The translations under genes were made by a program, and so were the position numbers. DNA of 64,000 bases from the NCBI GenBank assembly GCA_023485405.1, contig JAMCZU010000035.1, positions 1,519-65,518 of the forward strand. The letters are read 5' to 3'. The stretch is from Patescibacteria group bacterium. Lineage in GTDB: Bacteria; Patescibacteriota; UBA1384; UBA12157; JAENIV01. This document shows positions 26,709-56,170 of this stretch, piece by piece. The notes under the pieces are model-generated. The model did no database searches and was not told the DNA's origin. It saw nothing but the letters and a program-made list of their open reading frames with translations. How positions within the stretch are numbered: the first letter of the stretch is position 1; each line of letters begins with the position of its first letter.

Positions 26709-26741
26709 AAATCTGCCAGCTGGCGGAAAATAAGAGGGGAC

Positions 26742-27956
26742 ATGATAGACGAAGAAAAACCGAAGAAAAAATCCAAAAAATGGTGGTGTTTGGGTTGTTT
26801 AGGTGTACTTGTTGCAATAGTAATTATGGTGATAATTATTCAGCGCCAGGCGGGATCATCGGGGAGCGATGAACCAAAAATGTCGGCGGCCAAAAACTAT
26901 CCATATCACGAGCCATCGGCCGAGGCCAAAAATCGCAATTTGGATTGCAAAAAAACAGTTCTTTATGTTCGTAGCCCGGCTAAACAAAATTATAATATTT
27001 TATGCGAAAATATTTATCAGATTTCGCCGGAAGATCTGGCGGCGAAAATTTCAGCCCAAAAATATGATCGCATTATGCTCTATGGTGAAAATGTTATCTT
27101 TGATGCTAACCCGAGCATTGCCGGCGCTCAAAATTTTAGTCAAAATTTTTACAATACTGTTAAATTCACTGATCAGTATATGCTACCTAAAATGTTGGCG
27201 TTTTACGGTCTAGCAGATTTAAGTTATATTAGTAAAGATTTTTCGCCGTATCCGGCTTTGTTTTACGAATTAGAGCCAAAAGATGAAGTTCACCGAATTT
27301 GTAAAACGAATTCGGCCAGTGGTTGCGCTCAAATGCACATGTGGGCCACTTTGGATGAAGAAATTTTAACCAGACATATTTGGACGAATCGTGAATTTTT
27401 GTCTAAAGACAACATGGATTCCGTTTCTTGGGACACGCATTGGCCAGCCGATTGTTATACTGATTTTGTTTTAGAGCACGAAACAGCCCATTTATTAGTG
27501 GGTGCTCATGCTTTGAAAGTAGTGGGGATGTCTATTAATACTTGGTATTATATTCCAAGTTGGTTTAACGAGCAGCAGGCCGGTTTGGCGGAAATTTTGG
27601 GTCAAAATTTAGTTTGTGGCGAAGGCACGCGCGTTAATATTAAAACAATAGTTAACGGTAAAGAGGAGCCGAAAGACATTACTTATTTTAATAGTCTTTA
27701 CCCGGCGATTTCACTGTCACAAACATATCCTCGAGATAACCCGTGTGAGTTGGGAATGCTTTCCTCGTTTTATCGTTATTTGGATAAAGGCGATATCAAT
27801 ACCACTTACCCGGCCTTTATGACCTCCTTTCGTCAAGCGATGGAAAAAAACAATGATTTTCGCGATGACCAAACTTTTCTAAATTTTCTTAAAGATCTTC
27901 ACAACAACGATCCAGCTGAAATGGACTTTTTACGTTCTCATCAGTGTTCGGTTTAA
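26742..27956 (+). CDS. Membrane-anchored hypothetical protein with an HExxH motif (LEHETAHLL), a possible zinc metallopeptidase
   Basis: N-terminal TM helix. Single HExxH. No family recognised. Confidence 0.5.
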   Translation: MIDEEKPKKKSKKWWCLGCLGVLVAIVIMVIIIQRQAGSSGSDEPKMSAAKNYPYHEPSAEAKNRNLDCKKTVLYVRSPAKQNYNILCENIYQISPEDLAAKISAQKYDRIMLYGENVIFDANPSIAGAQNFSQNFYNTVKFTDQYMLPKMLAFYGLADLSYISKDFSPYPALFYELEPKDEVHRICKTNSASGCAQMHMWATLDEEILTRHIWTNREFLSKDNMDSVSWDTHWPADCYTDFVLEHETAHLLVGAHALKVVGMSINTWYYIPSWFNEQQAGLAEILGQNLVCGEGTRVNIKTIVNGKEEPKDITYFNSLYPAISLSQTYPRDNPCELGMLSSFYRYLDKGDINTTYPAFMTSFRQAMEKNNDFRDDQTFLNFLKDLHNNDPAEMDFLRSHQCSV

Positions 27957-27971
27957 TTGTTTTTCAAAAAG

Positions 27972-27996
27972 AAAACCCCGATTTCTCGGGGTTATT
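27972..27996. terminator. Bidirectional intrinsic terminator ccccgagaaatcgggg flanked by A and T runs
   Basis: Hairpin ccccga-tttc-tcgggg followed by a T-rich tract. The minus-strand ORF at 27992-28177 ends inside it. Confidence 0.65.
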
Positions 27997-28177
27997 GGTT
28001 TGGGGATTTTACAATCAGCCAGACAATTAGTCCAACGCCGGCTATTATTAACAGAATTCCCGGCACAAGCACAGCATCCCACCATTTAACTGATGGTGGC
28101 GGTCCGATTGGTCTACTTGGTCCACTCTGGCCGTCCTGGTTTTCGTTGTAGTTATTGGGATTACCAAAGTCTTTCAT
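27992..28177 (-). CDS. Small protein (61 aa) with a C-terminal TM anchor
   Basis: AAGGAGG RBS. Probably co-transcribed with the PEP-CTERM gene, with which it has a 4-nt overlap. Confidence 0.5.
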   Translation of the reverse strand: MKDFGNPNNYNENQDGQSGPSRPIGPPPSVKWWDAVLVPGILLIIAGVGLIVWLIVKSPNQ

Positions 28178-29103
28178 CTTGATTTCCTCCTTTTCAAAAA
28201 TCCAAGCGTGGCGATGCCGGAAATAAGGGCAAGTAAGCTGGACGGTTCGGGGACGGGAACAAGATTGATCAAAGCATTCTGTCCAATTTGAAATTGGCTA
28301 TTGATTGTGTTGCCGTTTGCAAGCGTGCCAGAAAGTATTCTGTATGGTTCAGAGTCATAAGTTTTCCCGAAGATGCTTTTGATTTCTCTGAAACCAACAG
28401 GGTTTCCGTCAACAGTAAAATTGGAACCGCTGAGAGTTATTCGACTATTGTTTGCAGCGGCCAAAAGTATATCTATTAAGCCGCCACTGATGGTTATTTG
28501 ACTGTTATCGCGAGCAATTACGTAACCCAGAAGTCCATCGTTAATTATAGTGTGACTTAGGTCAGTTGTGTGGAAAGAATATGACGACCATCCGCCATTA
28601 ATTATTATGTTGCTGTTACCACTTATAGTTGTGTATAACGTTCCTCCGCTTGTTAGTATCGCAAAGCTGTTGCCGCTACTCACAAAGGAGTTGTATATGC
28701 GTCCTCCTTTCATTGCGAGACGACTATTAGCACTGATGCTTAAGTTATCCATAGTTCCATTATTTATTAATACCTGGCTATTGTCGGTAGCGTTTAAAGA
28801 GCCTACGTAACCGTTATTAATCGTTGCGTAGCTATTGTCGAGAATATCCAAGTAATTAATCCAATAGCCATATATACTTATCTTGCTGTTGTTATACCCT
28901 CGAAGAGTAAAAGGGATATATGCGTAATTTACTAAACTGATGGTGGTTTGTGCGTTTGGTGTTTGATAATCTATCCATACATCGTCGTCGATTTTGTAAT
29001 CAACAACATGTGTTTCTCCGTCTCTAAACTCAGTCAGAGCTATTGAGGCAGAAGACATGAATAAGCAAACTGTTGCCATTACGACATGTGTCAGTATTTT
29101 CAT
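28174..29103 (-). CDS. Secreted repeat (beta-helix-like) protein with a C-terminal PEP-CTERM sorting signal
   Basis: N-terminal signal peptide. Repeated NNS..TISGG units. The C-terminus VPVPEPSSLLALISGIATLGFLKRRKSR matches the PEP-CTERM pattern of PEP, a hydrophobic helix and Arg-rich residues. Confidence 0.65.
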   Translation of the reverse strand: MKILTHVVMATVCLFMSSASIALTEFRDGETHVVDYKIDDDVWIDYQTPNAQTTISLVNYAYIPFTLRGYNNSKISIYGYWINYLDILDNSYATINNGYVGSLNATDNSQVLINNGTMDNLSISANSRLAMKGGRIYNSFVSSGNSFAILTSGGTLYTTISGNSNIIINGGWSSYSFHTTDLSHTIINDGLLGYVIARDNSQITISGGLIDILLAAANNSRITLSGSNFTVDGNPVGFREIKSIFGKTYDSEPYRILSGTLANGNTINSQFQIGQNALINLVPVPEPSSLLALISGIATLGFLKRRKSR

Positions 29104-29388
29104 CTTTCCAGCCCTCTCCGCCGCAGCGGACCCGCGTCTAGCGGGCTTTCAAATTGTTCAGGAACATTCCCCAAAACTGCCTAAAGTATACCAGGCAATA
29201 AACCATTTGTCTACTATTTTTAATATTTATCTCGAACAAAAACCGAAAGTTATCCACACTTCCATTTAATTACAAAAAATATGATAATGTATTTGTGGTT
29301 CAAATAAATGATTATTTAATCATTAAATTCATTACTGAAGATACATATTTTTTAGGTAAAATGATCGCTAATTTAGGAAAGAGGTAAA

Positions 29389-30324
29389 ATGCATCCATTT
29401 GAAAAAATGTTAAGTGTTTCTAGCGAAAGCATTAATTATATTTTGTCAGGTTTTTCAGAAATTGAATGGTCTGAGTTTTTATTGAATCCTAGAAGATTGC
29501 GTGGAAGTGATTTTTTAATGAGATGGTCTCAAGGTGTGTGGAGTGAACACCGTCTTATGGATGGTATAAATTCCTCTAATGATTTTTATGCGATTCCATA
29601 TGGTCCAAGCGGGACTGCACCTCACGACGATGTTAGGGCTTTTGAACTATATTTTGAAAGATTAGAAGCCGCAGGGTTAGGTAATATAAAAAGACCCGAT
29701 CTTTTAATATTTAAGAAACAAGATAAATTAGAAGTAGAAAAAATTATTGAGAGGTATAATGGCTTAGCAGAATTACCTTTTATCAAGGAAGAGAGTCTTA
29801 AACCTCTGCTGTCCAAGGCTATTATTGGTGTTGAATGTGAAAATAGTTTATGGAAAGCAGAAAAAATGCCTGATTTTAATACAGCACTTAGACCTCAAAA
29901 GCGTCTCGAAGGAAAACTTGGTTTGGCGAAAAATGCAGTATTACCAACAATTATAATTAAAGAGGAAGATAGGGAGCCACTAAAAAAATGGCAAGAAATG
30001 AATAAATTACCAATTCATATTTGGCATGTTTTTTATGACCGTGCATATGGAATTTCTTTAAATGAAGCCGAGCGATTAATAAAAGAGAGAGTAGTTTTAC
30101 CTACTATACAAATATTTCAAGCACCGGGAGGAGCAACTACTCAAAAGGCAATTTATAAACTCTACTACCATTATGGTTATCCTCTAGGTAAAGCGACTCA
30201 AGAGCCACAACTGCTTTCGGCTTACGTAGAAGATAAAAATGGACACATTCTTCCATATGTAAAATTCGATGGTGGTAGTTTGAAAATTTCTGAGGAATGC
30301 TTAAATGTATTACATAAGTTTTAA
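29389..30324 (+). CDS. Putative type II restriction endonuclease, assigned by genomic context
   Basis: 311-aa ORF immediately upstream of the MTase (2-nt gap, same strand) in a very AT-rich block. No conserved motif could be assigned by eye. Confidence 0.4.
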   Translation: MHPFEKMLSVSSESINYILSGFSEIEWSEFLLNPRRLRGSDFLMRWSQGVWSEHRLMDGINSSNDFYAIPYGPSGTAPHDDVRAFELYFERLEAAGLGNIKRPDLLIFKKQDKLEVEKIIERYNGLAELPFIKEESLKPLLSKAIIGVECENSLWKAEKMPDFNTALRPQKRLEGKLGLAKNAVLPTIIIKEEDREPLKKWQEMNKLPIHIWHVFYDRAYGISLNEAERLIKERVVLPTIQIFQAPGGATTQKAIYKLYYHYGYPLGKATQEPQLLSAYVEDKNGHILPYVKFDGGSLKISEECLNVLHKF

Positions 30325-30326
30325 CT

Positions 30327-31826
30327 ATGAGTAACAAAAATCGAGAAGAATTAAGAAATTTGGGCCAATTTTGGACACCAGGATGGATTGCCAAAGTCAT
30401 GGTGGCTTATTTTCTTGATGGCAAACAAAAAGAGATTTTTGATCCTGCGGTTGGAACAGGTGCTTTTTATACAGCATTGAAAGAGCTGGATAAAAAAAGA
30501 CAAATCAAATTTTACGGTACTGATATTGATAAAAATGTGATAAAAGATGCTTTTAACCATAAAATTTTTGATAATAAAAGTGTAGTAGAAGTAAGAGATT
30601 TTATTAAGGAACCACCAACAAAAAAAATTTCTGCAATTATTGCTAATCCTCCCTATATTAGACATCATCGTTTATCGGCAGACACAAAGAAATTGTTAAA
30701 ACAAATTAGCTATAAGTACACAGGCTACGATATAGATGGGAGAGCAGGAATTCATATTTATTTCCTAATTCAATCATTGGGTTTATTGAAAAATGGCGGA
30801 AAACTATCTTTTATAATGCCTTCAGATACCTGTGAAGGTGTATTTGCAAAAAAATTATGGAACTGGATAGGAAATAATTACTGTATTGAAAAAGTTATTA
30901 CTTTTGAAAGTGAAGCTACACCTTTTCCGAATATTGATACCAATGCTATAATATTTTTTATTTCGAAAAATCCTAAACAATCAGTTTTTGAATGGGTTAG
31001 AGTTAAAAAAGAGTCAGGTCAATTATTGAATTATTTATTAAACAAAAATTGTGATTTTTCTGATTTAGAAATAATTAAGAGAGATACTGAAGAAGCTTTA
31101 TTCACGGGAATGTCAAGAAGACCAACGGAAAGAAGCCAATACAAATATAGATTAAGTGATTTTGCAAAAGTAATAAGAGGTATTGCATCAGGGGCTAATG
31201 ATTATTTTTTCATTACGAAGCAAAAAGCCGAAGAGTTAGGGATTCCAGGTAGGTATTTAAAGTCAGCATTAGGTAGGACAAGAGATATGGAAGGAAGTGT
31301 TATTACGCTTAATGATTTAAAAAAATTAGAAGAAAAAGGTCGTCCTACTTTATTATTATCACTTGATAATCAACGAAAAGAAGATTTACCAAAGTCATTA
31401 AGAAATTATATTGAAATAGGAGAAAAAAATAATTTACAGTATAAAGCTCTTATTTCAACAAGAAATCCTTGGTATAAAATGGAAAAAAGAAAACCTCCAA
31501 AATTTCTTTTTGCTTATCTTGGTAGAAGAAACGCAAGGTTTGTAATGAACCAAGCTGGTGTAATACCTTTAACAAGTTTTCTTTGTGTATATCCGTTATT
31601 TGATGATAAAAAGTATGTTAATAAATTATGGCAGATTTTAAACAATCCTAAAACAATCAATAATTTGAAACTTGTTGGAAAATCTTATGGTTCTGGTGCA
31701 GTTAAGGTAGAACCAAGATCACTGGCTAATTTACCGATTCCTGAAGAAGTCGTAAGGCGGGTAGGTATTGAACCAATGTATACAAAAGAACAACAAAAAA
31801 CATTATTCGAATTTGCGTATTCTTAA
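30327..31826 (+). CDS. N6-adenine DNA methyltransferase, gamma class (TaqI/Eco57I-like)
   Basis: Motif X GQFWTP, motif I FDPAVGTGAF, motif IV NPPY (IIANPPYIRHH). Confidence 0.8.
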   Translation: MSNKNREELRNLGQFWTPGWIAKVMVAYFLDGKQKEIFDPAVGTGAFYTALKELDKKRQIKFYGTDIDKNVIKDAFNHKIFDNKSVVEVRDFIKEPPTKKISAIIANPPYIRHHRLSADTKKLLKQISYKYTGYDIDGRAGIHIYFLIQSLGLLKNGGKLSFIMPSDTCEGVFAKKLWNWIGNNYCIEKVITFESEATPFPNIDTNAIIFFISKNPKQSVFEWVRVKKESGQLLNYLLNKNCDFSDLEIIKRDTEEALFTGMSRRPTERSQYKYRLSDFAKVIRGIASGANDYFFITKQKAEELGIPGRYLKSALGRTRDMEGSVITLNDLKKLEEKGRPTLLLSLDNQRKEDLPKSLRNYIEIGEKNNLQYKALISTRNPWYKMEKRKPPKFLFAYLGRRNARFVMNQAGVIPLTSFLCVYPLFDDKKYVNKLWQILNNPKTINNLKLVGKSYGSGAVKVEPRSLANLPIPEEVVRRVGIEPMYTKEQQKTLFEFAYS

Positions 31827-31884
31827 AATAAGAATTTACGAAAAGAAAAATCGAGAAAATTATTAAAGAAGGCGGTGAGTAAAA

Positions 31885-32127
31885 ATGTCTGAGTTGAAAG
31901 AATATATTGAAGATGTATTATTACAGATCGAGAAGGGGAAAGGAAATCATGATGTTTGGGGATCTGTGTATTTTGATATTGCAACAGTAAAAGAAAAGAA
32001 AGGGGGAGGAAAGATCGGAGTAAGTGTTCTTGGACTTGCAGGAGGTATAAAAAATGAGTCGGTATCTAGAATCCAATTTAAAATAAAAATGCAAGGAGCC
32101 CATGGTGGACCAGACGCATTTAAATAA
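31885..32127 (+). CDS. Small hypothetical protein (80 aa, Gly-rich), first gene of the TIR cassette
   Basis: AAGAAGG RBS. No family recognised. Confidence 0.45.
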   Translation: MSELKEYIEDVLLQIEKGKGNHDVWGSVYFDIATVKEKKGGGKIGVSVLGLAGGIKNESVSRIQFKIKMQGAHGGPDAFK

Positions 32128-32224
32128 AAATTGTTAAGGAATTAGTAAAAAGGTAGATGCAGACGTTTAATGTTTGGTTAAACACTGTCTTAAACTCAAG
32201 TAAAGAAGTAATGAAAGGATTATT

Positions 32225-32644
32225 GTGAAAAAAGTATTTGTTAGCTTTGACTACGAAAACGATAAACAATACAAGTATCTGCTTGAAGCATGGGATGCTA
32301 ATGACAAATTTGAATTCAAATTTTATGATTTGACACCTAATGAAATTCGAAGTGAAGATATTGGTAGAATTAAGGCTGGTCTCACAGCTAAAATAAAGCA
32401 AGCGACACATACTTTAGTGATTGTTGGAAAAGAAGCAAATAGATTACATCTTTCTTCAGAAGAAATCGGATTTAGAAATTGGATAAATTTTGAGGTTCGT
32501 CAAAGCATTAATGAGGGAAATAAAATTGCCATCATAAAGCTCTCGAGTAATTGTGCTTTACCGGAAGAATTATCTGGCGAACATTACTGGTATATAACTG
32601 GTTTTTCCGAAAAAAATGTAGCAAAAGTGCTTGAGGCCGAATAA
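32225..32644 (+). CDS. TIR-like domain protein (MTH538/DUF1863 type, ThsB-like). GTG start.
   Basis: N-terminal KVFVSFDYEND and W-x3-E (RNWINFEV) motifs characteristic of TIR/TIR-like NADase folds. AAAGGA RBS. Confidence 0.6.
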   Translation: MKKVFVSFDYENDKQYKYLLEAWDANDKFEFKFYDLTPNEIRSEDIGRIKAGLTAKIKQATHTLVIVGKEANRLHLSSEEIGFRNWINFEVRQSINEGNKIAIIKLSSNCALPEELSGEHYWYITGFSEKNVAKVLEAE

Positions 32645-32645
32645 A

Positions 32646-33266
32646 ATGAAAGAAATAGTATGCCAGATATTATTTGAGCACTACAATGATTCTTATCAAA
32701 TAAATCAAGCTAAAATTAAGCAAAGGGATAGGTTATTTGCTTATCTTTTGGTTGTTTTAGTCTTATTGCTTTTTGAAATTTATTCTCCTGAAAATGCTTC
32801 CGCAATTTTGTTGCAAACTATTTCTATTAAACTCGGGTTAAATACTCCTATTGATTTTGCTTTTTTAGGTACTATTATATGGTTTCTTTTACTATGTTTA
32901 CTCATCAGATATTTACAAACTGTTGTAGCAATAGAAAGAGGTTATTCTTACATTCACGATCTTGAAAACGAAATCTCAAATTTTATAAATCAAAAGAAGT
33001 TTTGTCGAGAAGGATATGCTTATCTTGACGATTATCCATTATTCTTAAATTGGGCTTCAAGTTTATTTAAAATAGTTTTTCCAGTAATTCTTTTATTCAT
33101 CGCTTCATATAAGATTTATATTGAAATTTCTAGTTTTAAAAAGAGTGTAACTTTTCTAGCTATTTTAGATTTTATTTTTTACTTAGCTATAGTTATCTCT
33201 TTAATAATTTGCTTTATATTTTCTAAGAAAAATAAAGAAATAAAAAATCATCGAGGGTTAAAATGA
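32646..33266 (+). CDS. Polytopic membrane protein (4-5 TM helices), hypothetical. TTG 32631 is an alternative start.
   Basis: Hydrophobic helices. Lies immediately downstream of the TIR-like gene and overlaps it. Confidence 0.5.
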   Translation: MKEIVCQILFEHYNDSYQINQAKIKQRDRLFAYLLVVLVLLLFEIYSPENASAILLQTISIKLGLNTPIDFAFLGTIIWFLLLCLLIRYLQTVVAIERGYSYIHDLENEISNFINQKKFCREGYAYLDDYPLFLNWASSLFKIVFPVILLFIASYKIYIEISSFKKSVTFLAILDFIFYLAIVISLIICFIFSKKNKEIKNHRGLK

Positions 33267-33502
33267 AACGGTTAATATTAAATATCTTTACTCTAATTTC
33301 TTTGCTGGTTGCGTTATTTTCCGGTTTTGCTTTAATTGCTTCCTTGAAAAAAGATGTATATTTAGGGCTTGCAACTCATTTTTGGCTTGACATCCATGTT
33401 GTATTTGGTTCAGCCATTATTATTCTTTTAATCCTACAAATAATTTTAAACCGAGCATGGATATTTAAAATGTTTAAAAAAATTAGGGAGGAGAAAAAAT
33501 GA
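33263..33502 (+). CDS. Small 2-TM membrane protein (79 aa)
   Basis: ATGA overlap with the upstream gene. Two hydrophobic helices. Confidence 0.5.
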   Translation: MKRLILNIFTLISLLVALFSGFALIASLKKDVYLGLATHFWLDIHVVFGSAIIILLILQIILNRAWIFKMFKKIREEKK

Positions 33503-33671
33503 ACAAGAAAATTGACAAAGAAAAATGGGCTAAACTATTAGCCAGTAAAACACCCGAAACTCATGCTGCCGTGATGCAAAAATTGGGCATTACGCCAGAA
33601 GAAGACAGAAGATGGCACGAAGAAAATGGTGGCGAATCTGCCGACTTTAGCAAGTTAAAATCAAATTCCTA
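33498..33671 (+). CDS. Small soluble protein (57 aa)
   Basis: Strong GGGAGGAG RBS. ATGA overlap with the upstream gene. Followed by the palindrome P2. Confidence 0.45.
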
Positions 33672-33718
33672 ACCTCTCGCTTACACTTCCGAAGTGTAAG
33701 TGGTAGAAAAATCAAGGA

Positions 33719-34066
33719 ATGAAAAATAATCGAACAATTGATATTATTAAAGACATTTATTATCGTCTAAGTGTCTTGCCGCTGATGTTTTCGTTTTGGA
33801 TTTTAATTATTATTTGGCGGTATCGAATTGAAAAAAATAAAAATCGGTTGTTTGAAAATCGCCAGAAACTTGATCGCATTTGGTATCTTAGTGGTTATTT
33901 AAAAGGTGTTAAGTATCGTCGAGAACAAGCTAAATTAAAAAAAATTGAAAAGATTTTTTTGCGTCTTGAAGAAAGTGCGAAAAAAGACGAAGGGCGTTAT
34001 GAAAAGCAAAAAGAACTTTTCGACAAATATTTTAGTAAGGTTTTTGATCCAAGCATTGGTAAATAA
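33719..34066 (+). CDS. Membrane-anchored hypothetical protein (115 aa)
   Basis: AAGGA RBS. N-terminal TM helix followed by a charged coiled region. Confidence 0.5.
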   Translation: MKNNRTIDIIKDIYYRLSVLPLMFSFWILIIIWRYRIEKNKNRLFENRQKLDRIWYLSGYLKGVKYRREQAKLKKIEKIFLRLEESAKKDEGRYEKQKELFDKYFSKVFDPSIGK

Positions 34067-34219
34067 TCTAACATCTGCCACCTATGAAGTGGAATATGGT
34101 AAAATAGAAATAAAGTAAAGTCATTATAGAAAAGTGATAGTAAAGCGTGAATATGATGATAAAAATAGCTATATTCACGATATATTGACAAGTATCCGTG
34201 AATATGATAAAATTTAGGT

Positions 34220-35092
34220 ATGGTAAACAATGATATTAAACAAAGAATTAATAATTTAAAAAAGCAATATGATTCTTTAAAGATTGGCAAAGGATCTCTT
34301 TTGGATATACTATCGGAAGCGGAGATTCCGGAGTCAGTCTATAACTCAAATGCTATTGAAAACTCAACCCTAACTATAGAGGAAACGGAAAAAATTCTTT
34401 TAGAACTTGAAGTTATGCGTAAGGTGTCTGTTCGAGAAGTTTTTGAAGCCAAGAATTTAGCTAGAGTTTTTGAATATATTAAAGATAAAATCCTAAGTAA
34501 AGATTTAGATAAGGAACTAATTTTATTTCTACACAAAATGTTGATTAGTGGTATAAATGATGATTATGCTGGTAGATTTCGAAAGTCAGGTGAATATGTC
34601 AGAGTCGGGACACATATTGCTCCCGCTCCAGAACGCGTATTATTAATGATTAAATCGGCTCTATTGGATTATTCGAGTGATCATACTTCATATTTTATTG
34701 AAAAAATTGCAAAATTTCATTTAAAATTTGAACATATTCATCCATTTTGTGATGGTAATGGTAGAATTGGCAGAGTCTTAATAAACTATTCGCTGATGCA
34801 GCTTGGATTTCCGCCGGTTATTATTCGTGATAAAGAAAAGCATCTTTACTATAAAACTTTTAAAGAATTTAAAGATTATAAGAAAACAGCAGGGATGGAA
34901 AGTATTTTATATCTTGCTCTTTTAGAATCGTTAAATAAAAGGATTGCTTATCTGCAAGGTAATAAGATTATCGCATTATCTGAATATGCCAAAAATACAG
35001 ATCAACCTTTGAATATTTTATTAAATAAAGCAAAGCGTCAAACCACAGCTGCTTTTCGAGAAAAAGGCATTTGGAAAATAGGGCAGAAATAA
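34220..35092 (+). CDS. Fic/Doc-family protein (AMPylation-type toxin fold)
   Basis: Canonical Fic motif HPFCDGNGRIGR. Confidence 0.8.
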   Translation: MVNNDIKQRINNLKKQYDSLKIGKGSLLDILSEAEIPESVYNSNAIENSTLTIEETEKILLELEVMRKVSVREVFEAKNLARVFEYIKDKILSKDLDKELILFLHKMLISGINDDYAGRFRKSGEYVRVGTHIAPAPERVLLMIKSALLDYSSDHTSYFIEKIAKFHLKFEHIHPFCDGNGRIGRVLINYSLMQLGFPPVIIRDKEKHLYYKTFKEFKDYKKTAGMESILYLALLESLNKRIAYLQGNKIIALSEYAKNTDQPLNILLNKAKRQTTAAFREKGIWKIGQK

Positions 35093-35172
35093 AAAAAATT
35101 TGTGGGACAACTCTCTCTTGCTCTCAAAATTTGCTAAAATAATATTAAGCAAAAAAAATATCGAGGAGAATT

Positions 35173-35832
35173 ATGTATAAACTATCACCATCGGATTTTG
35201 CTTATTTATATGAAGAATGCAAGCTTTGTTATTGTCTAAAGGTTAAAGAGAATATTTACCAACCAAGCATGCCAATGCCTGGTGTTTTTTCGGCGATCAA
35301 TACTCGTTTGCAAGGTAATTTAGTTGGTAAAAATTTAAGAACTTTGTCTCGCAATTTACCGGAGGGAGTTGTGGTAACTCAAGAAGGCTGGGTCGAGTCA
35401 GTAGTTGTGCCAGGAACCAATGTTTTTATCAAAGGTAAATACGATCTTTTGGTGAAAAATAGTGATGGTACGCATACTTTAGTTGATCTAAAAATTAGTC
35501 AGCCGGTCGAAGATAAAATTGAAAAATACAAAACACAATTAGGCGCTTATAAATTTGCACTGGAAAATCCCGCCAGTGGTGAAAAGATTAAGATTTCTAG
35601 ATTGGGACTTTTGATTTTTTACCCAGATACTGTCACTTTTGAAAATGGAGTTGCACGGCTCGATTTTCCGCCAAAGTGGCTAGAAATTGCTTGTGACGAT
35701 ACGAATTTTACTAATTTCATTAAAGATGTTGATAAACTTCTAACTGGGCCATTACCGGACGAAGATCAAAATTGCAAATGGTGCGCTTATCGTCATACTG
35801 GAGAAAATATAATTCATAAGGAGGAAAAATGA
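35173..35832 (+). CDS. Cas4-like PD-(D/E)xK nuclease (DUF83/RecB-family fold with Fe-S-type cysteines). No CRISPR array or cas1/cas2 genes are present.
   Basis: Core GKYDLLV...DLKIS (D...E/DxK). N-terminal CKLCYC and C-terminal CKWC cysteines resemble the Cas4 4Fe-4S cluster arrangement. Confidence 0.5.
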   Translation: MYKLSPSDFAYLYEECKLCYCLKVKENIYQPSMPMPGVFSAINTRLQGNLVGKNLRTLSRNLPEGVVVTQEGWVESVVVPGTNVFIKGKYDLLVKNSDGTHTLVDLKISQPVEDKIEKYKTQLGAYKFALENPASGEKIKISRLGLLIFYPDTVTFENGVARLDFPPKWLEIACDDTNFTNFIKDVDKLLTGPLPDEDQNCKWCAYRHTGENIIHKEEK

Positions 35833-36005
35833 AAAACATTCATCATGGTGGATCGAATGCGGTCTATGGACTGGGTTTTATTGGCGCCGCTGTTTATTTT
35901 ATCAGTCAGGCAACCACATTTTGGCTCGGCGTACTCGGGTTTCTAAAAGCCATTGTCTGGCCCGCCTTTTTAGTCTACGAAGCCCTCAAATTTTTAGGCA
36001 AATAG
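35829..36005 (+). CDS. Small 2-TM membrane protein (58 aa)
   Basis: AAGGAGG RBS. ATGA overlap with the Cas4-like gene. Confidence 0.45.
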   Translation: MKNIHHGGSNAVYGLGFIGAAVYFISQATTFWLGVLGFLKAIVWPAFLVYEALKFLGK

Positions 36006-36045
36006 ACAAGTAAAAAAATCTCAAAACTAATAATCTTTAACCGAT

Positions 36046-36075
36046 ACACATCCCACTTCCAAGGTGGACCTTTTT
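36046..36075 (+). terminator. Intrinsic terminator cccacttccaaggtgg plus T6. The same core sequence recurs at 56144-56170.
   Basis: Hairpin followed by a T-run. Marks the end of the island operon. Confidence 0.6.
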
Positions 36076-36239
36076 TCAGGTTAGATGTTAGAAAAAATAG
36101 TATGCTATAGCTTGTTATTTAGGATACCTTACTTATAGTCGAAGCATGTTATTTTTAAATTAAAAAAATATTATTGAGGAATAAGTGATAAAAAATAAGC
36201 TTTGAACAAAAATATCCAAAGCTTATATGGTACCCCGCT

Positions 36240-36755
36240 TCATGCGGGACCGTCTAAAGATGCTCTTCCTGATGCCAGACCTATATATGAAGGGCGCTTA
36301 CTACCCAGGTCTCGACTCCATATATAACCACAATTGGCACACTTTCTTGTCTCGACATAGGTCACATTTTCATCTGGTACTTGATCATAGTACTCAATCA
36401 CTTCCACCCTTCGACTCGCATCACAAAGTATTTCCCGTCCATCGCATTTTTGGCAATGGAGATAGTCCTGATAAAAAATGTTCGAAAATGATTTTCCTAA
36501 TTCATCAAAGAGAATTCCCAGAGCCAAACAAGGACTTGCTATCGTCCATATAAGACACAAAAGCCAGACTATTAGGTTGTCTTCTTCAAACTTATTGTTG
36601 AAAAGATGTGCTAACGCTAGTTTGAATGTCCACGCCAAAAATAGTAAGCCAAGAGGCCAAAGCACACTACCTACAATACCCACTCTTCTTCTACACTTGG
36701 AGTACTTTGTTACCTGATCAATCTCCTCTTCAGATACGATAATCTTCAGTGACAT
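36240..36755 (-). CDS. Membrane protein with a C-terminal zinc-ribbon (HCQKCDG...CANCG), hypothetical
   Basis: AGGGAGG RBS at the internal ATG (MSLKII). Two TM helices. Hairpin terminator at 36199-36226 followed by a T-run. Confidence 0.45.
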   Translation of the reverse strand: MSLKIIVSEEEIDQVTKYSKCRRRVGIVGSVLWPLGLLFLAWTFKLALAHLFNNKFEEDNLIVWLLCLIWTIASPCLALGILFDELGKSFSNIFYQDYLHCQKCDGREILCDASRRVEVIEYYDQVPDENVTYVETRKCANCGYIWSRDLGSKRPSYIGLASGRASLDGPA

Positions 36756-37037
36756 CAGAATTTTCCTCCCTTTACTCATCAGTAAGCTACATCATAAACG
36801 ACGGCTTCGATGGCAGATTTGTCCTTTGATTAACTCAGGACGAAATTGTCAAAGAACAGCCTTGATTATAGTTCGGTTATAGTAAAAAGTCAATCGGTTG
36901 TACTCATCAAAAGCATTATTTAAGTTCAAACTTCCTATAAATAAAAACAGTCTGTAAATGTAGTATAGTTTCATATTAAGCACTCTATGTGATAATATAG
37001 ATATTAAATAAAAGAATTAATTAAAAAAGGAGTGATT

Positions 37038-37202
37038 ATGTCAATTGTATCGGAATCGGAATTCAAGGGAAATCCAATGATTGTGATTAAGCTTGATGAG
37101 GAAGATAAATTTCCTTTTCAATTCGGGGTCAAAAAAGCTAAATTAGTTTTAGAAAATATTGAAGAAATAAAAAAGTTTGTCGAAAGACACGACCGATCGT
37201 AA
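37038..37202 (+). CDS. Small hypothetical protein (54 aa)
   Basis: Strong AAGGAG RBS. Lies upstream of the CDGSH protein gene. Confidence 0.45.
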   Translation: MSIVSESEFKGNPMIVIKLDEEDKFPFQFGVKKAKLVLENIEEIKKFVERHDRS

Positions 37203-37232
37203 GTAGCGACTCTATTTCTAAAAAGAAATCAG

Positions 37233-37910
37233 ATGGACCAAATTAAGCAAGTACGTAAAATTAAAATTACGGAAAATGGACCGTATACGGTTTCCGGCAG
37301 TGTGCCGCTTTCGGAGGAAAAAATTGTCAATGATGCCGATGGATTCCCCTTAAAATGGGAGAAAATCAAAGAGCATCATTGCAAAGAAGAATATTCTCTT
37401 TGTCGTTGTGGCCATTCCAAAAACAAACCATTTTGTGATAAAAACCATAAAGAGATTAATTTTAATGGTGAAGAGACTGCCAGCAATGTACCTTTTGAAA
37501 AACAAGCAGAAACAATTGTTGGACCTGAATTAATTCTTAAAGATTCACCTCCACTTTGCGTTCACGCTCGTTTTTGTGATCGCGCTGGTGGAATTTGGGA
37601 CTTAGTTCAAAAATCAGATGAAAAAAAATCTAAAAAAATTGCGATCGAAGAGGCTTTTAATTGTCCGTCCGGTCGGTTAGTTGTCAAAGATAAAAAAACA
37701 GGGCAAGCCATTGAGCCAGAATTTGAGCAATCAATTTCGGCAACTGAAGATGCGGAAGGAATCGCTGGTCCTTTGTGGGTTAAGGATGGTATTCCAATTG
37801 AATCGGCCCAGGGCCAAACTTACGAAGTCAGAAATCGTATCACTCTTTGTCGTTGTGGCCATTCGAAAAACAAACCATTTTGTGATGGCTCACATTATTT
37901 AATTTCATAA
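37233..37910 (+). CDS. CDGSH-type iron-sulfur domain protein with two CDGSH-like motifs
   Basis: CRCGHSKNKPFCDKNH and CRCGHSKNKPFCDGSH. Confidence 0.8.
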   Translation: MDQIKQVRKIKITENGPYTVSGSVPLSEEKIVNDADGFPLKWEKIKEHHCKEEYSLCRCGHSKNKPFCDKNHKEINFNGEETASNVPFEKQAETIVGPELILKDSPPLCVHARFCDRAGGIWDLVQKSDEKKSKKIAIEEAFNCPSGRLVVKDKKTGQAIEPEFEQSISATEDAEGIAGPLWVKDGIPIESAQGQTYEVRNRITLCRCGHSKNKPFCDGSHYLIS

Positions 37911-37958
37911 AGTTCTCTTCCTTGCTAATTTCTCCTGATAGTGCTAATATTGGAGCTA

Positions 37959-54000: not shown

Positions 54001-54773
54001 GAATTGTTCAAGAAAAAGACAATCAGCATATTGTGGTGACTTCACCAGAATCTCAAGCAGAAGTTCATGATCTAATTGAGGATTATGAACCAACAGTTAA
54101 AAGTGGTGATATTGTAAAATTCCGTCAAGCAATTGCCATTGCGCCAGAGAAAAAAGCCATTAGGGCCGGTCTCGTGGGCAAAGTTAAAATTTCTAAAAAT
54201 AAAATTACCATTGAGTCAACCGAAAAAGTCTCCATTAAATACTCCGTTGCGGCCAGAACAATTATTAAAGTTGAAGATGGTCAAGAAGTGACAAAAGGTC
54301 AAGAATTAACTGAAGGTCATTTGGATTTAGCGGCATCACTTCGACTGCGGGGCAAAGTTCAGACGCAAAAATATATTATTAGAAGTATTCAAGAAATTTA
54401 TGCTTCTCAAGGGCAGGCTATTTCTGATAAACATATTGAAATTATTATTAAAGAAATGTTTTCGAAGATTAAAATTAAGGAATCGGGTGATTCAGAATTC
54501 TTTGCTGGTCAGATTGTGGATGTTTTAGAATTCGATAAGGTTGTTGACGACTTAAAGAAAAAGAATAAAAGACCACCAATCGTCGAAGATCAAGTAATTG
54601 GTATTACCCGCGTGGCTTTAAAGACCGAAAGCTTTTTGTCGGCGGCTTCCTTCCAAGAAACAACCAGCGTTTTAATTGACGCCGCCACCCGTGGCGCGGT
54701 TGATCACTTGCGAGGGCTAAAAGAAAATGTTATAATTGGTAGGCTCATTCCAGCTGGAACGGGTTTAAAGTGA
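51021..54773 (+). CDS. rpoC: DNA-directed RNA polymerase subunit beta'
   Basis: Zinc-binding CYCGKYKKIRYKGVICDKCGV. Catalytic NADFDGDQM. Confidence 0.95.
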   Translation: MANPKRMNLNAIKEKNKVIDFDALKISIASPDQILDWSYGEVLKPETINYRTQKPERDGLFDERIFGPTKDWECYCGKYKKIRYKGVICDKCGVEVTRSAVRRERMGHIDLSVPVTHIWYVHGVPSILGLVLDLSTSELERVIYFAGFMVLEINEDIRKSVLDQLEKEYSEAKGKAADNNMDLAKIEVAYKATRQEILSLVPKMILTESKYQDLSLRYGQIVKVGIGAEAIYEYLKKIDLAELHESLNKELEQATSVNTRKILRRLKLLAEMKNAGIRPEWLIMTRLPVLPPDLRPMVQLDGGRFAASDLNDLYRRVINRNNRLKRLLSSGAPEVICRNEKRMLQEAVDSLVDNSARRGRAVSAGAAARKLRSLSDMLRGKQGRFRQNLLGKRVDYSGRSVIVVGPNLKLNQCGLPKIMALELFKPFVISRLINEGHVHNVKNATRLIERGEAIVWDILEKITSNYYVMLNRAPTLHRLGIQGFQPVLIEGKAIQVHPLVCYAFNADFDGDQMAVHVPLSVQAKEETSQIMRSSHNILKPASGEPVVTPRLDIVFGAYYLTTLQEGALGEDKIFASKNEAILAYHQGFVHVRAKIKVYFREKNGQGQLMETSIGRILFNNILPDGVSYQNVAMDSKTLKKLITGVFDRFGTDVTAELVDKIKKIGFDYAGLSGMTISVADIIIPSSKDGILKAGDKVLDEIDNQYLRGLITDNEKEIKTIELWNGIRSELEGEMLKEFGLNNPVYLMITSGARGSVAQLTQMGGMKGLVVNPAGEIIQVPIRSNYKEGLSVIEYFISTHGARKGKSDTSLRTSDAGYLTRRLVDVAHDMVITTHDCGTTTGFELNREESESLGEKLSTRLVGRISLEDIKDKNKIIVKKGEEINEEKAVLIENSGIEKVIVRSVLECRAERGLCQNCYGRDLATGKLVEMGTVAGIIAAQAIGEPGTQLTMKTFHMGGISGEDITSGLPRVEELFEARTPRVPGILSEISGIVRIVQEKDNQHIVVTSPESQAEVHDLIEDYEPTVKSGDIVKFRQAIAIAPEKKAIRAGLVGKVKISKNKITIESTEKVSIKYSVAARTIIKVEDGQEVTKGQELTEGHLDLAASLRLRGKVQTQKYIIRSIQEIYASQGQAISDKHIEIIIKEMFSKIKIKESGDSEFFAGQIVDVLEFDKVVDDLKKKNKRPPIVEDQVIGITRVALKTESFLSAASFQETTSVLIDAATRGAVDHLRGLKENVIIGRLIPAGTGLK

Positions 54774-54869
54774 ATTTCAAATTAAAAATTTCAAATTTCA
54801 AATCAATTTTAAAATTCGAATTTCGAAATTCATTGAAAATTTAAAATTAAAAATTTAAAATTAAAAAAA

Positions 54870-55286
54870 ATGCCTACAATATCACAACTTTTAAAATATG
54901 GACGCAAGTCTAAACCTAAGAAAACCAAAACCCCCGCTTTGCGGCGCGGTTTTAATTTCTTAAAAAATAAACCGGTGGAATTTGAATGCGGTCGTCCGTT
55001 TATGCGTGGTGTTTGTGTTAAAGTAACGACGGTCACACCAAAAAAACCAAACTCGGCGCTTAGAAAAATTGCGAGAGTGCGTTTGACTTCCGGTCAAGAA
55101 GTAACGGCCTATATTCCAGGTGAAGGCCATAATTTGCAGGAGCACTCAGTGGTTTTAATTCGAGGTGGTCGAGTTAAGGATTTGCCTGGTGTTAGATATC
55201 ATGTGATTCGTGGCAAGTTTGATACCGGTGGCGTCGAAAATCGTAAACAAGGCCGATCTAAATATGGTTCAAAGAAAGGGAAGTAA
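54870..55286 (+). CDS. rpsL: 30S ribosomal protein S12, with an insertion of about 12 aa near the N-terminus
   Basis: [10 protein letters not shown]...[25 protein letters not shown]. Confidence 0.9.
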
Positions 55287-56143: not shown

Positions 56144-56170
56144 AATCCCACTTCCAAGGTGGGATTTTTT
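56144..56170 (+). terminator. Intrinsic terminator atcccacttccaaggtgggat plus T6
   Basis: 7-bp stem followed by a T-run. Confidence 0.7.

Follow-up and report, generated by a model that had tools for sequence, protein, structure and literature searches.

The genes for a Fic protein, a Cas4-like nuclease and a small membrane protein (hereafter the mini-protein), which adjoin in a stretch of 64,000 nucleotides (64 kb; hereafter the window) from a bacterium belonging to the candidate phyla radiation (CPR), are in our estimate (probability about 0.72) functionally independent accessory genes that have become neighbours between gyrA and infB, at the right-hand edge of a stretch that is hypervariable and low in GC, and do not constitute a conserved system. 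We regard the three as mere neighbours, and not as a three-part toxin or defence system, because each gene travels alone in other genomes. The host chromosome would be that of a Berkelbacteria-like member of the Patescibacteria.

The three open reading frames described in the initial annotation, and the 80-nt gap that it reported between the first two, are present on the plus strand and truly adjoin (Table 1). Their placement in an island also holds, as the gyrA–infB interval that contains them is variable and low in GC and carries, upstream of the trio, a ThsB-like TIR gene and a restriction-modification pair (AccI-like enzyme, Eco57I-like methylase). The island genes, Fic included, have GC contents of 26–34%, compared with 37.2% for the whole window, and the mini-protein gene reaches 44.6%. 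The immediate upstream neighbour of Fic, orf115, encodes a protein of the membrane and coiled-coil type. A promoter and terminator scan of the Fic–nuclease spacer revealed no terminator and no promoter scoring at least 9/12. Further, as had been claimed, there is no CRISPR-like array anywhere in the window, and none of the approximately 20 open reading frames scanned around the locus has a Cas1 or Cas2 domain.

Table 1. Positions in the window of the genes, motifs and predicted signals at the Fic–nuclease–mini-protein locus.
Feature	Position	Strand	Remarks
Inverted hairpin copy	34078..34092	-	2 mismatches; between orf115 stop and Fic promoter
Fic promoter and putative operator	34146..34213	+	TTGACA-17-TAAAAT at 34185-34213, TG extension; promoter scan 11/12
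Fic gene	34220..35092	+	290-aa class II FICD-like AMP-transferase (predicted); Pfam Fic 2e-20
Inhibitory-helix motif SNAIEN	34346..34363	+	residues 43-48, fits [ST]xxxE[GN]; regular-expression match
Fic active-site motif HPFCDGNGRIGR	34739..34774	+	residues 174-185
Fic–nuclease spacer	35093..35172	+	80 nt; boundary of composition and homology: GC 30.8% before (Fic), 36.2% after (nuclease); L007 homology begins at 35164
Solo Cas4-like PD-(D/E)xK nuclease	35173..35832	+	219 aa
N-terminal CxxC (C16, C19)	35218..35229	+	half of putative metal or Fe-S staple
Nuclease catalytic core	35434..35550	+	GKYD (88-91), DLK (105-107), QLGAY (122-126)
C-terminal CxxC (C201, C204)	35773..35784	+	at least 90% conserved
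Membrane mini-protein	35829..36005	+	58 aa; two helices read by eye
Terminator-like hairpin CCACTTCCAAGGTGG, then T-run	36053..36076	+	downstream of mini-protein gene

The Fic gene had been called canonical, and its product indeed belongs to the Fic/Fido AMP-transferases: it carries the HxFx(D/E)GNGRxxR motif and matches Pfam Fic (PF02661), the family proposed for checking, with 73.8 bits against a gathering cut-off of 24. The initial annotation had also suggested looking for an intramolecular inhibitory helix, and one is found, as SNAIEN aligns residue for residue with TVAIEG of human FICD (HYPE), the motif that holds the inhibitory Glu. FICD is the closest solved homologue (E 7.5e-23, residues 15–214), and both motifs are common to FICD, to bacterial class II Fic proteins and to the protein described here. 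Because the inhibitory helix is intramolecular, we assign the protein to class II and not to class I with a separate antitoxin; judged by its sequence, it is a self-inhibited, FICD-like AMP-transferase. A classification that covers class II Fic AMP-transferases is said to have been set out by Engel et al. in 2012. In class I toxin–antitoxin pairs (FicT/FicA, VbhT/VbhA type), the helix is supplied by a separate small adjoining antitoxin gene, and we rejected this assignment: the motif is internal, the neighbouring genes are orf115 and the nuclease, and the 80-nt gap 3' of Fic holds no small partner open reading frame. Unlike FICD, the protein has neither a TPR domain nor a membrane anchor; it is bacterial, lies in an island, has a putative operator of its own and ends in a short C-terminal extension.

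Homologues of the Fic protein (67–85% identity) are spread across the Patescibacteria. Like SoFic and PDC-S04, which are single-gene Fic proteins from defence contexts, it is matched by PADLOC profiles (PDC-S04, 5e-38, through PDLC04836 at profile positions 30–217 of 244; SoFic, 2e-24), PDC-S04 being a computational single-gene defence candidate only. SoFic is a class II Fic protein that is nonetheless toxic and phage-protective, and a small antitoxin is encoded downstream of it (PMC12249575). Unlike SoFic, the protein gives no match to the Fic_N domain (PF13784), is about 80 amino acids shorter and scores far below the cut-off of the NCBIfam SoFic equivalog NF046030 (33.1 bits versus 550), and the gap 3' of its gene leaves no room for a counterpart of the 47-amino-acid AS1-like gene of SoFic. 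Glu47 would be expected to block productive ATP binding until the block is relieved, whereupon the enzyme may, like SoFic in abortive infection, AMPylate some target in the cell. The C-terminal region, helix-turn-helix-like in appearance, may act on the conserved CGTGAAT operator and so autoregulate the gene.

For the nuclease, the Cas4/RecB-like core reported earlier is borne out by an alignment of 61 sequences reaching down to approximately 30% identity, in which the RecB-type motifs GxxD, (D/E)xK and QxxxY (here GKYD, DLK and QLGAY) are all conserved. The initial annotation had allowed that core residues might prove absent on alignment; Gly-88 and Lys-107 are invariant, and Asp-91, Asp-105, Gln-122 and Tyr-126 are at least 90% conserved. 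The RecB-type Mg/Mn catalytic core is complete, and the fold is that of Cas4, AdnAB, DNA2 and EXO5, with structural similarity to solved Cas4, AddB, DNA2 and EXO5 domains; compared with the nuclease domains of AddB/AdnAB, DNA2, EXO5 and MGME1, the protein has no helicase partner or domain and is very short. It matches Pfam PDDEXK_1 (PF12705) with 42.4 bits against a cut-off of 22, as do 60 of the 61 aligned family members. The Cas4 family itself (PF01930/COG1468, Cas_Cas4), which had been proposed as a check, is missed (15.6 bits versus 22.7) and is matched by just 11 of the 61, even at E values up to 1. The claim of four cluster-type cysteines stands as to number and not as to layout. Four of the six cysteines (16, 19, 21, 174, 201 and 204) are conserved, namely Cys-16 (at least 90% of the 61 sequences), Cys-19 (invariant), Cys-201 and Cys-204, and they are arranged 2+2 (CxxC…CxxC), not 1+3 as in the C…CxxC-x5-C pattern of Cas4, there being no cysteine 5–6 residues past Cys-204. 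The C-terminal CxxC was aligned weakly, below significance (score −2.0), to a CxxC of the Cas4 protein SSO0001 (PDB 4ic1). By analogy, the four cysteines sit like the Fe-S staple of Cas4, and the CxxC…CxxC arrangement could equally bind Zn.

The nuclease gene is accessory and stands alone. That it has no CRISPR link, as proposed earlier, agrees with the window holding no array, with neighbouring open reading frames devoid of Cas domains and with the absence of Cas families among the recurrent neighbours of 39 related nuclease loci. Solo Cas4-family genes are over-represented in CRISPR-less CPR bacteria, and PF12705 branches have no CRISPR association (PMC5704561). Compared with the solo-Cas4 and PF12705 enzymes treated by Hudaiberdiev et al. 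(2017, PMC5704561) and with M. mazei Solo-Cas4 (PMC12501428), the nuclease described here lies below the PF01930 threshold, has the 2+2 in place of the 1+3 cysteine layout and belongs to a CPR clade that, on weak tree evidence, was apparently exchanged between classes and not passed on strictly vertically. A phage origin was considered and rejected: IMG/VR contains no relative, and BFVD yields only distant fold matches (at most 20% identity).

Could the nuclease instead be a vertically inherited CPR housekeeping enzyme of DNA repair or recombination, comparable with archaeal solo-Cas4, so that its adjacency to Fic is irrelevant? We consider this unlikely, although it fares best among the alternatives. 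The protein is very highly conserved (58–86% identity) across Woese-, Roizman-, Levy-, Gottesman-, Berkel- and Nealsonbacteria, occupies the corresponding interval in the closest relative, L007, has a Limnocylindrales homologue that lies among metabolic genes and counts ftsZ, aminoacyl-tRNA synthetases, gyrA and queA among its neighbours; solo-cas4 genes, moreover, are under ordinary purifying selection (PMC5704561). Against this, conserved synteny is wholly missing. The initial annotation had named conserved core-genome synteny as a sign of a housekeeping role, and we found no neighbour cluster recurring beyond a few loci across 45 nuclease loci; in 39 of these, the genes within two positions on either side fall into 129 Pfam families, each seen at most three times, and methylases, Bro-N, RhuM and ResIII are frequent neighbours. 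The nuclease also forms only approximately 900 clusters at 90% identity, compared with more than 8000 for Fic, which suggests that a minority of CPR genomes carry it. Further, a neighbour-joining tree, which is weak evidence as it has no support values, mixes the CPR classes and places Woesebacteria in at least six positions, and the clade thus appears to have been exchanged between classes rather than inherited strictly vertically.

A more tentative proposal, to which we give somewhat less credence, is that the nuclease represents a distinct, uncharacterised Cas4-like clade (approximately 220 amino acids, partnerless, with the cysteine layout and exchange among CPR classes described above and an unusually high identity for such exchange), possibly acting as a single-gene system against incoming DNA or processing the DNA that its nucleotide-auxotrophic hosts take up. 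Under this proposal, some lineages may show preferential insertion of Fic cassettes upstream of the nuclease. As a distinct matter, the same reading places the mini-protein in a very large, cross-phylum family.

The mini-protein had been described as translationally coupled and as spanning the membrane twice. The coupling is seen in the ATGA overlap between the nuclease stop and its own start, with an AGGAGG ribosome-binding site approximately 8 nt upstream; the two helices were read by eye from a hydrophobic segment, spanning roughly residues 10–53, that a short polar stretch around residues 26–30 interrupts. We take the gene to be real because it has matches at 74–90% identity in more than 6600 database clusters. 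None of these is matched by Pfam, NCBIfam or PHROG, and the family, very large and unannotated, occurs in both Patescibacteria and Bacteroidales. Its surroundings elsewhere are unrelated, being a ribosomal operon in one lineage, flavodoxin/TrkH in a second and DUF5723 in a third. In L046, a gene of 217 amino acids lies upstream of it; this was considered as a hidden nuclease homologue and dismissed, as tblastn gives no match.

Within the window, the trio is probably read as one transcript, a prediction based on a single strong promoter ahead of Fic and a terminator only after the mini-protein gene, none being detected in between. The promoter region contains three CGTGAAT half-sites, two of which make an inverted repeat (CGTGAAT…ATTCACG). 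Because the −10 element stops 6 nt before the ATG, the Fic transcript may be leaderless; the nuclease and mini-protein genes each have a strong ribosome-binding site of their own. It is most likely that this co-transcription is an accident of insertion.

The initial annotation had treated the locus as a module, and one may ask whether Fic and the nuclease, with or without the mini-protein, are an interdependent toxin or abortive-infection unit in which, for instance, Fic senses or arms the system and the nuclease is the effector, or one of them serves as antitoxin to the other. The bracketing of the trio by one promoter and one terminator, the defence-island look of the setting, with its restriction-modification pair and ThsB-like TIR gene upstream, and the SoFic precedent of a small downstream antitoxin (PMC12249575) would fit such a unit. 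Further, one other lineage, L057–59 (approximately 75% nucleotide identity), repeats the order and orientation of Fic and nuclease with a spacer of 21 nt, and in L057 the promoter and operator architecture is kept despite diverged spacers. There, an orf115 homologue accompanies the pair, in the order Fic–nuclease–orf115 versus orf115–Fic–nuclease in the window; L057 was also considered as a small circular element and this was rejected, as L057–59 show no terminal overlap. L035 has another Fic, not the same one but SoFic-like, at a distance of two genes upstream from its nuclease. Because the pair recurs in L057–59 and another Fic is close by in L035, some functional or insertional affinity between Fic and the nuclease is possible.

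Conserved co-occurrence and gene order across lineages, in contrast, are lacking, and we consider the module improbable. The loci compared were retrieved with peptide patterns from single sequences and represent close relatives rather than an unbiased census; among them, adjacency is confined to the window and L057–59, that is, two of about six lineages with a Fic at least 79% identical and roughly 1 in 43 Fic loci overall. Counted here were 33 metagenome loci together with L060–63 and L099–101; only L057–59 carry the nuclease, leaving about 40 without it. Conversely, of the 45 nuclease loci, 2 have a Fic beside or close to the nuclease; tblastn over these detected a nearby Fic only in L035 and the mini-protein nowhere, and the mini-protein adjoins neither gene in any other locus examined. 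A crude comparison of the top 120 Fic with the top 120 nuclease matches gave as common contigs only the window's own (77176) and one of 2582 nt. By our rough estimate, one or two chance co-locations with Fic would be expected per 40 windows of 12 kb, Fic being common in CPR variable regions. The earlier claim of a conserved three-gene module is thus not sustained.

Nearest relatives speak against the module as well, since each gene is found without the other: the nuclease in L007, and Fic in L060 and L099–101. L007 is 80–84% identical to the window in nucleotide sequence over gyrB, gyrA and infB and has the nuclease, but neither Fic nor the mini-protein, between gyrA and infB, where a sigma factor and orf56 lie on its upstream side and a TaqI-like methylase follows downstream; DNA homology around the nuclease is confined to 35164–35822. 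GC content and homology thus both break in the spacer, and the Fic protein has its own inhibitory helix. We also considered orf56 (37032–37202 in the window) as the true partner of the nuclease. It directly precedes the nuclease in two loci (L007, L010) and is close by in two more (L011, L013), and was rejected as it is confined to a Berkelbacteria-like subset, the small upstream open reading frames elsewhere being unrelated; a PC4-like guess for orf56 found no support in Pfam.

Finally, it is very improbable that the 2-kb trio forms a mobile cassette with inverted hairpins at its ends (34067–34092 and 36053–36092): a hairpin CCACTTC..AGGTGG does occur, inverted, at both ends, each followed by CAG…ATGTTAGA, in three copies in the window against 0.03 expected, with related hairpins just upstream of the L011 nuclease and at the end of contig L057, but the third copy (a recurrence of a 15-mer of the downstream hairpin at 56148) acts as an ordinary bidirectional terminator among ribosomal-protein and elongation-factor genes, the cassette contains no gene for a transposase or integrase, L007 shares the nuclease alone, GC is internally heterogeneous, and the arms are short and gapped and their pairing was spotted post hoc. 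The downstream hairpin resembles a tRNA-Trp anticodon arm; a tRNA or attachment site at 36053 was nevertheless rejected, as neither ARAGORN nor Rfam reports a tRNA there and the hairpin is terminator-like.

We therefore return to three independent accessory genes. The nuclease would be the older resident of the gyrA–infB interval, and the mini-protein gene a later insertion at its 3' end. The nuclease may work as a stand-alone exonuclease that threads and degrades DNA ends, directed at foreign or damaged DNA and independent of CRISPR and of any fixed partner.

If the module existed, a new Fic-plus-nuclease abortive-infection system would follow; because the evidence speaks against it, the trio does not belong on a list of new defence modules. 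The locus instead cleanly exemplifies how, in a variable region of a CPR genome, genes that adjoin and are translationally coupled can mimic an operon-encoded system. That CPR bacteria have solo nucleases of the Cas4 family is already on record, and the clade described here shows a shifted set of cysteine ligands (2+2) that is open to biochemical testing. Further, the locus points to a large unannotated family of small membrane proteins, cross-phylum and highly conserved, that is missing from family databases.

The Fic gene, the nuclease gene and the gene for a 58-aa protein (the mini-protein) follow one another on the same strand, and their positions match exactly those of the initial annotation. 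A spacer of 80 nt separates the Fic and nuclease genes, and the nuclease stop overlaps the mini-protein start in ATGA, with AGGAGG ~8 nt upstream. The three genes lie between a single promoter and a single terminator-like hairpin, with no terminator detected from one gene to the next, and from these signals they are predicted to be probably co-transcribed in this genome. The translational coupling of the nuclease to the mini-protein is specific to this locus. The window contains three copies of the hairpin CCACTTCCAAGGTGG, where 0.03 would be expected. Two copies flank the three genes in inverted orientation, each followed by CAG…ATGTTAGA, and the third is an 18-nt-identical terminator in a ribosomal-protein and elongation-factor region. 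Related hairpins are found just upstream of the nuclease in a homologous locus (L011, 5827-5841 and 5901-5915) and where contig L057 ends. The element is possibly a terminator particular to this lineage, or REP-like.

Features of the three-gene locus and copies of the associated hairpin (positions in the window)
Feature	Position	Strand	Detail
Hairpin CCACTTCCAAGGTGG	34078-34092	-	
Fic promoter	34185-34213	+	TTGACA-17-TAAAAT, strong; -10 ends 6 nt ahead of ATG
Fic gene	34220-35092	+	290 aa
Nuclease gene	35173-35832	+	219 aa
Mini-protein gene	35829-36005	+	58 aa
Hairpin CCACTTCCAAGGTGG	36053-36067	+	
Terminator-like hairpin	36053-36076	+	3' bracket of the three genes
Hairpin CCACTTCCAAGGTGG	56148-56162	+	

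The Fic protein carries the Fic motif HPFCDGNGRIGR at residues 174-185, scores 73.8 bits against the Pfam Fic model and has human FICD as its closest solved homologue (E 7.5e-23). The intramolecular inhibitory helix that the initial annotation had proposed to look for is present: SNAIEN (residues 43-48) aligns on TVAIEG of the FICD inhibitory helix, which assigns the protein, by alignment, to class II with a predicted intramolecular inhibitory glutamate. Among PADLOC models it matches the candidate PDC-S04 (5e-38) and SoFic (2e-24), yet its 33 bits fall short of the cut-off of 550 set for the NCBIfam SoFic equivalog, and it lacks the Fic_N domain. SoFic is a class II Fic able to serve as a toxic abortive-infection effector (PMC12249575). 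Three CGTGAAT half-sites lie around the Fic promoter (34146-34213), as an inverted pair and one site overlapping the -10 element, an arrangement kept in the homologous locus L057 (120-197) despite diverged spacers. This conservation, together with the closeness of the -10 element to the ATG, suggests that the Fic gene may be autoregulated and possibly leaderless. Close homologues (67-85% identity) are plentiful throughout Patescibacteria, with AbiEii and a diversity-generating retroelement as neighbours at L060-63, Bro-N plus GmrSD at L099, an aminoglycoside-phosphotransferase-like (APH) gene at L100 and type I HsdR plus an HD protein at L101; this distribution of neighbourhoods is consistent with an accessory or defence gene that is self-contained. 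In L060-L063 (3050-9420), the closest Berkelbacteria homologue lies between a DUF6922-AbiEii pair and the retroelement (bAvd plus reverse transcriptase). A Replic_Relax gene lies nearby, joined in one copy by a serine recombinase; the region suggests a mobile island.

The Cas4/RecB-like core ascribed to the nuclease held up. The protein contains the motifs GKYD (88-91), DLK (105-107) and QLGAY (122-126), passes PF12705 with 42.4 bits and, in an alignment of 61 sequences reaching down to ~30% identity, shows conservation of Gly-88, Asp-91, Asp-105, Lys-107, Tyr-119, Gln-122 and Tyr-126. PF01930, which had been proposed as a check, was not passed (15.6 bits against a cut-off of 22.7). The AlphaFold2 model has a pLDDT of 94.5; a profile search of PDB sequences matched Cas4 SSO0001 (5e-4), with whose CxxC the C-terminal CxxC of the nuclease aligns weakly (score -2.0). 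We conclude that the fold and chemistry are Cas4/RecB-like. As for the four cluster-type cysteines noted initially, four are indeed conserved in the same alignment (Cys-16 and Cys-19, Cys-201 and Cys-204, each pair a CxxC; Cys-21 and Cys-174 are not), but their arrangement is 2+2 rather than the 1+3 of canonical Cas4, and their ligand, Fe-S or Zn, is putative. The absence of a CRISPR link was confirmed, with no CRISPR-like array within the 64-kb window and no Cas1 or Cas2 match among ~20 neighbouring ORFs scanned. Solo Cas4-family genes are enriched in CRISPR-less genomes of CPR and DPANN, and the PF12705 branches are not CRISPR-associated, their function being given as unknown, "defence or repair" (PMC5704561). 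One archaeal Solo-Cas4 has been characterised, as a DNA nuclease with a [4Fe-4S] cluster and Mn/Mg dependence (PMC12501428).

Relatives of the nuclease with 58-86% identity occur in Woese-, Roizman-, Levy-, Gottesman-, Beckwith-, Berkel- and Nealsonbacteria; because ~900 clusters (90% identity) were found for it versus >8000 for Fic, the distribution suggests that it is not universal among CPR bacteria. Its neighbour-joining tree, weak evidence for want of support values, intermixes CPR classes. Genes often found beside it include methylases, Bro-N, RhuM and ResIII, and a Limnocylindrales homologue (37% identity) lies among metabolic genes. No close viral relatives were found in IMG/VR or BFVD. 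The nuclease has no conserved synteny, so that the refuting outcome named initially, a housekeeping gene with core-genome synteny, did not materialise either.

The mini-protein is a real, widespread and uncharacterised two-helix protein. It matches >6600 clusters (90% identity clustering) with members 74-90% identical, from Patescibacteria but also from Bacteroidales and Paludibacteraceae, and is covered by none of the Pfam, NCBIfam or PHROG models. Its contexts elsewhere are mutually unrelated (next to a ribosomal-protein operon; between a flavodoxin-like gene and trkH; 3' of a DUF5723 gene), and the family has no conserved neighbours.

The window comes from a Patescibacteria (CPR) chromosome, with gyrB, gyrA, infB and a sigma factor identified by domain scans and large ORFs that are rpoB/rpoC-sized by length alone. 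An AT-rich tandem repeat (54773-54871; periods 7, 14, 25 and 32 nt) fills the gap between a 1250-aa ORF ending at 54773, rpoC-sized by length alone, and the next ORF. A stretch at ~29.4-35.1 kb has a GC content of 26-34%, against 37.2% for the whole window, and encodes an AccI-like restriction enzyme together with an Eco57I-like methylase, as well as Fic, a ThsB-like TIR protein and several small membrane proteins; the gyrA-infB interval is therefore a variable, island-like region. The gene for the ThsB-like protein (139 aa; PADLOC ThsB 4.7e-13) shares 14 nt with that of a 211-aa multi-pass membrane protein without family match (32225-33266), no ThsA is present, and the two proteins may form a TIR plus membrane-effector pair.

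The locus of the closest relative (L007) shares 80-84% nucleotide identity over gyrB, gyrA and infB, with IF2 90% identical at the protein level. Its gyrA-infB interval runs sigma factor, orf56 (a small gene), nuclease and TaqI-like methylase and lacks Fic, mini-protein, restriction-modification and TIR genes. DNA homology around the nuclease is restricted to 35164-35822, and GC content steps from 30.8% in Fic to 36.2% in the nuclease and 44.6% in the mini-protein gene, the last well above its surroundings. Taken together with the neighbourhood data below, this comparison and these steps indicate that the nuclease is the older resident, that the low-GC island including Fic abuts it upstream and that an insertion at the 3' end of the nuclease gene brought in the mini-protein gene. 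The interval is hypervariable between these two genomes of ~82% nucleotide identity (window 26709-37940; L007 4643-9586). In the window (~11 kb) it contains a 404-aa ORF, a PEP-CTERM protein, the restriction enzyme and methylase, the TIR and 211-aa genes, DUF4405, the three genes and a CDGSH protein; in L007 (~5 kb) a 244-aa ORF completes it. The CDGSH and Fer4_19 gene (37233-37910) contains a 44-nt direct repeat (37396-37439 and 37843-37886) corresponding to its two CDGSH domains; the copies are 98% identical as DNA, an unusual degree for domains duplicated within one gene. The conserved 54-56-aa orf56 (MSIVSESEFKGN…FGVKKAKL…), without family match and confined to a Berkelbacteria-like subset, lies 1.2 kb downstream of the nuclease in the window (37032-37202), directly upstream of it in L007 (5827-5991) and L010 (171-338) and within 0.6-1.2 kb in L011 and L013. 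A 179-aa ORF without family match (36240-36779, minus strand) separates the mini-protein gene from orf56; it has hydrophobic stretches that may span the membrane and, at its C terminus, a zinc-ribbon-like motif, CxxC…CxxC.

Neighbourhood comparison did not bear out the proposal that the three genes form a module. Across 45 nuclease loci, no neighbour cluster recurred beyond a handful of loci; the two genes on each side in 39 loci comprised 129 different Pfam families, the most frequent, DNA methylase, appearing three times. By tblastn, the mini-protein was nowhere beside the nuclease in these loci. The main rival, that Fic and the nuclease are a true pair, retains some probability: they adjoin in L057-59, a lineage with ~75% nucleotide identity to the window (Fic, a 21-nt spacer, nuclease, an orf115 homologue), and by tblastn a Fic lies near the nuclease in one further locus, L035. 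The L035 gene encodes another kind of Fic, SoFic-like and 394 aa long, with an oppositely oriented DUF433 gene between it and the nuclease. L057-59 is the sole exception among the Fic loci, the nuclease being absent from 33 metagenome loci, L060-63 and L099-101. As a rough estimate, however, the adjacency seen in ~2 of the 45 nuclease loci and in ~1 of the 43 Fic loci comes near to chance co-location for two common CPR accessory genes. The row in L035 (1945-5056) comprises the SoFic-like gene (Fic_N, Fic and winged helix), DUF433, the nuclease homologue and another PDDEXK_1 nuclease (293 aa). The orf115 homologue, of membrane and coiled-coil type (L057 1788-2153; window 33719-34066; 48% identity), is 3' of the nuclease in L057 and 5' of Fic in the window, a circularly permuted order; we found no evidence that the L057 contig is circular.

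We conclude that each of the three genes belongs to an already known kind and that a Fic-nuclease-mini-protein module is not supported. The initial interpretation is partly supported, in the nuclease's lack of a CRISPR link, the island-like context and a plausible Fic toxin. Fic would work by itself, by analogy with FICD and SoFic, as an auto-inhibited AMP-transferase freed by some trigger, and the nuclease, judging from fold and motifs, would likewise work by itself, as a metal-cluster-stapled, Mg/Mn-dependent exonuclease on DNA ends. Separate follow-up may be justified for two findings: that a highly conserved clade of CPR nucleases has a 2+2 cysteine set, and that the mini-protein belongs to a large family lacking annotation.
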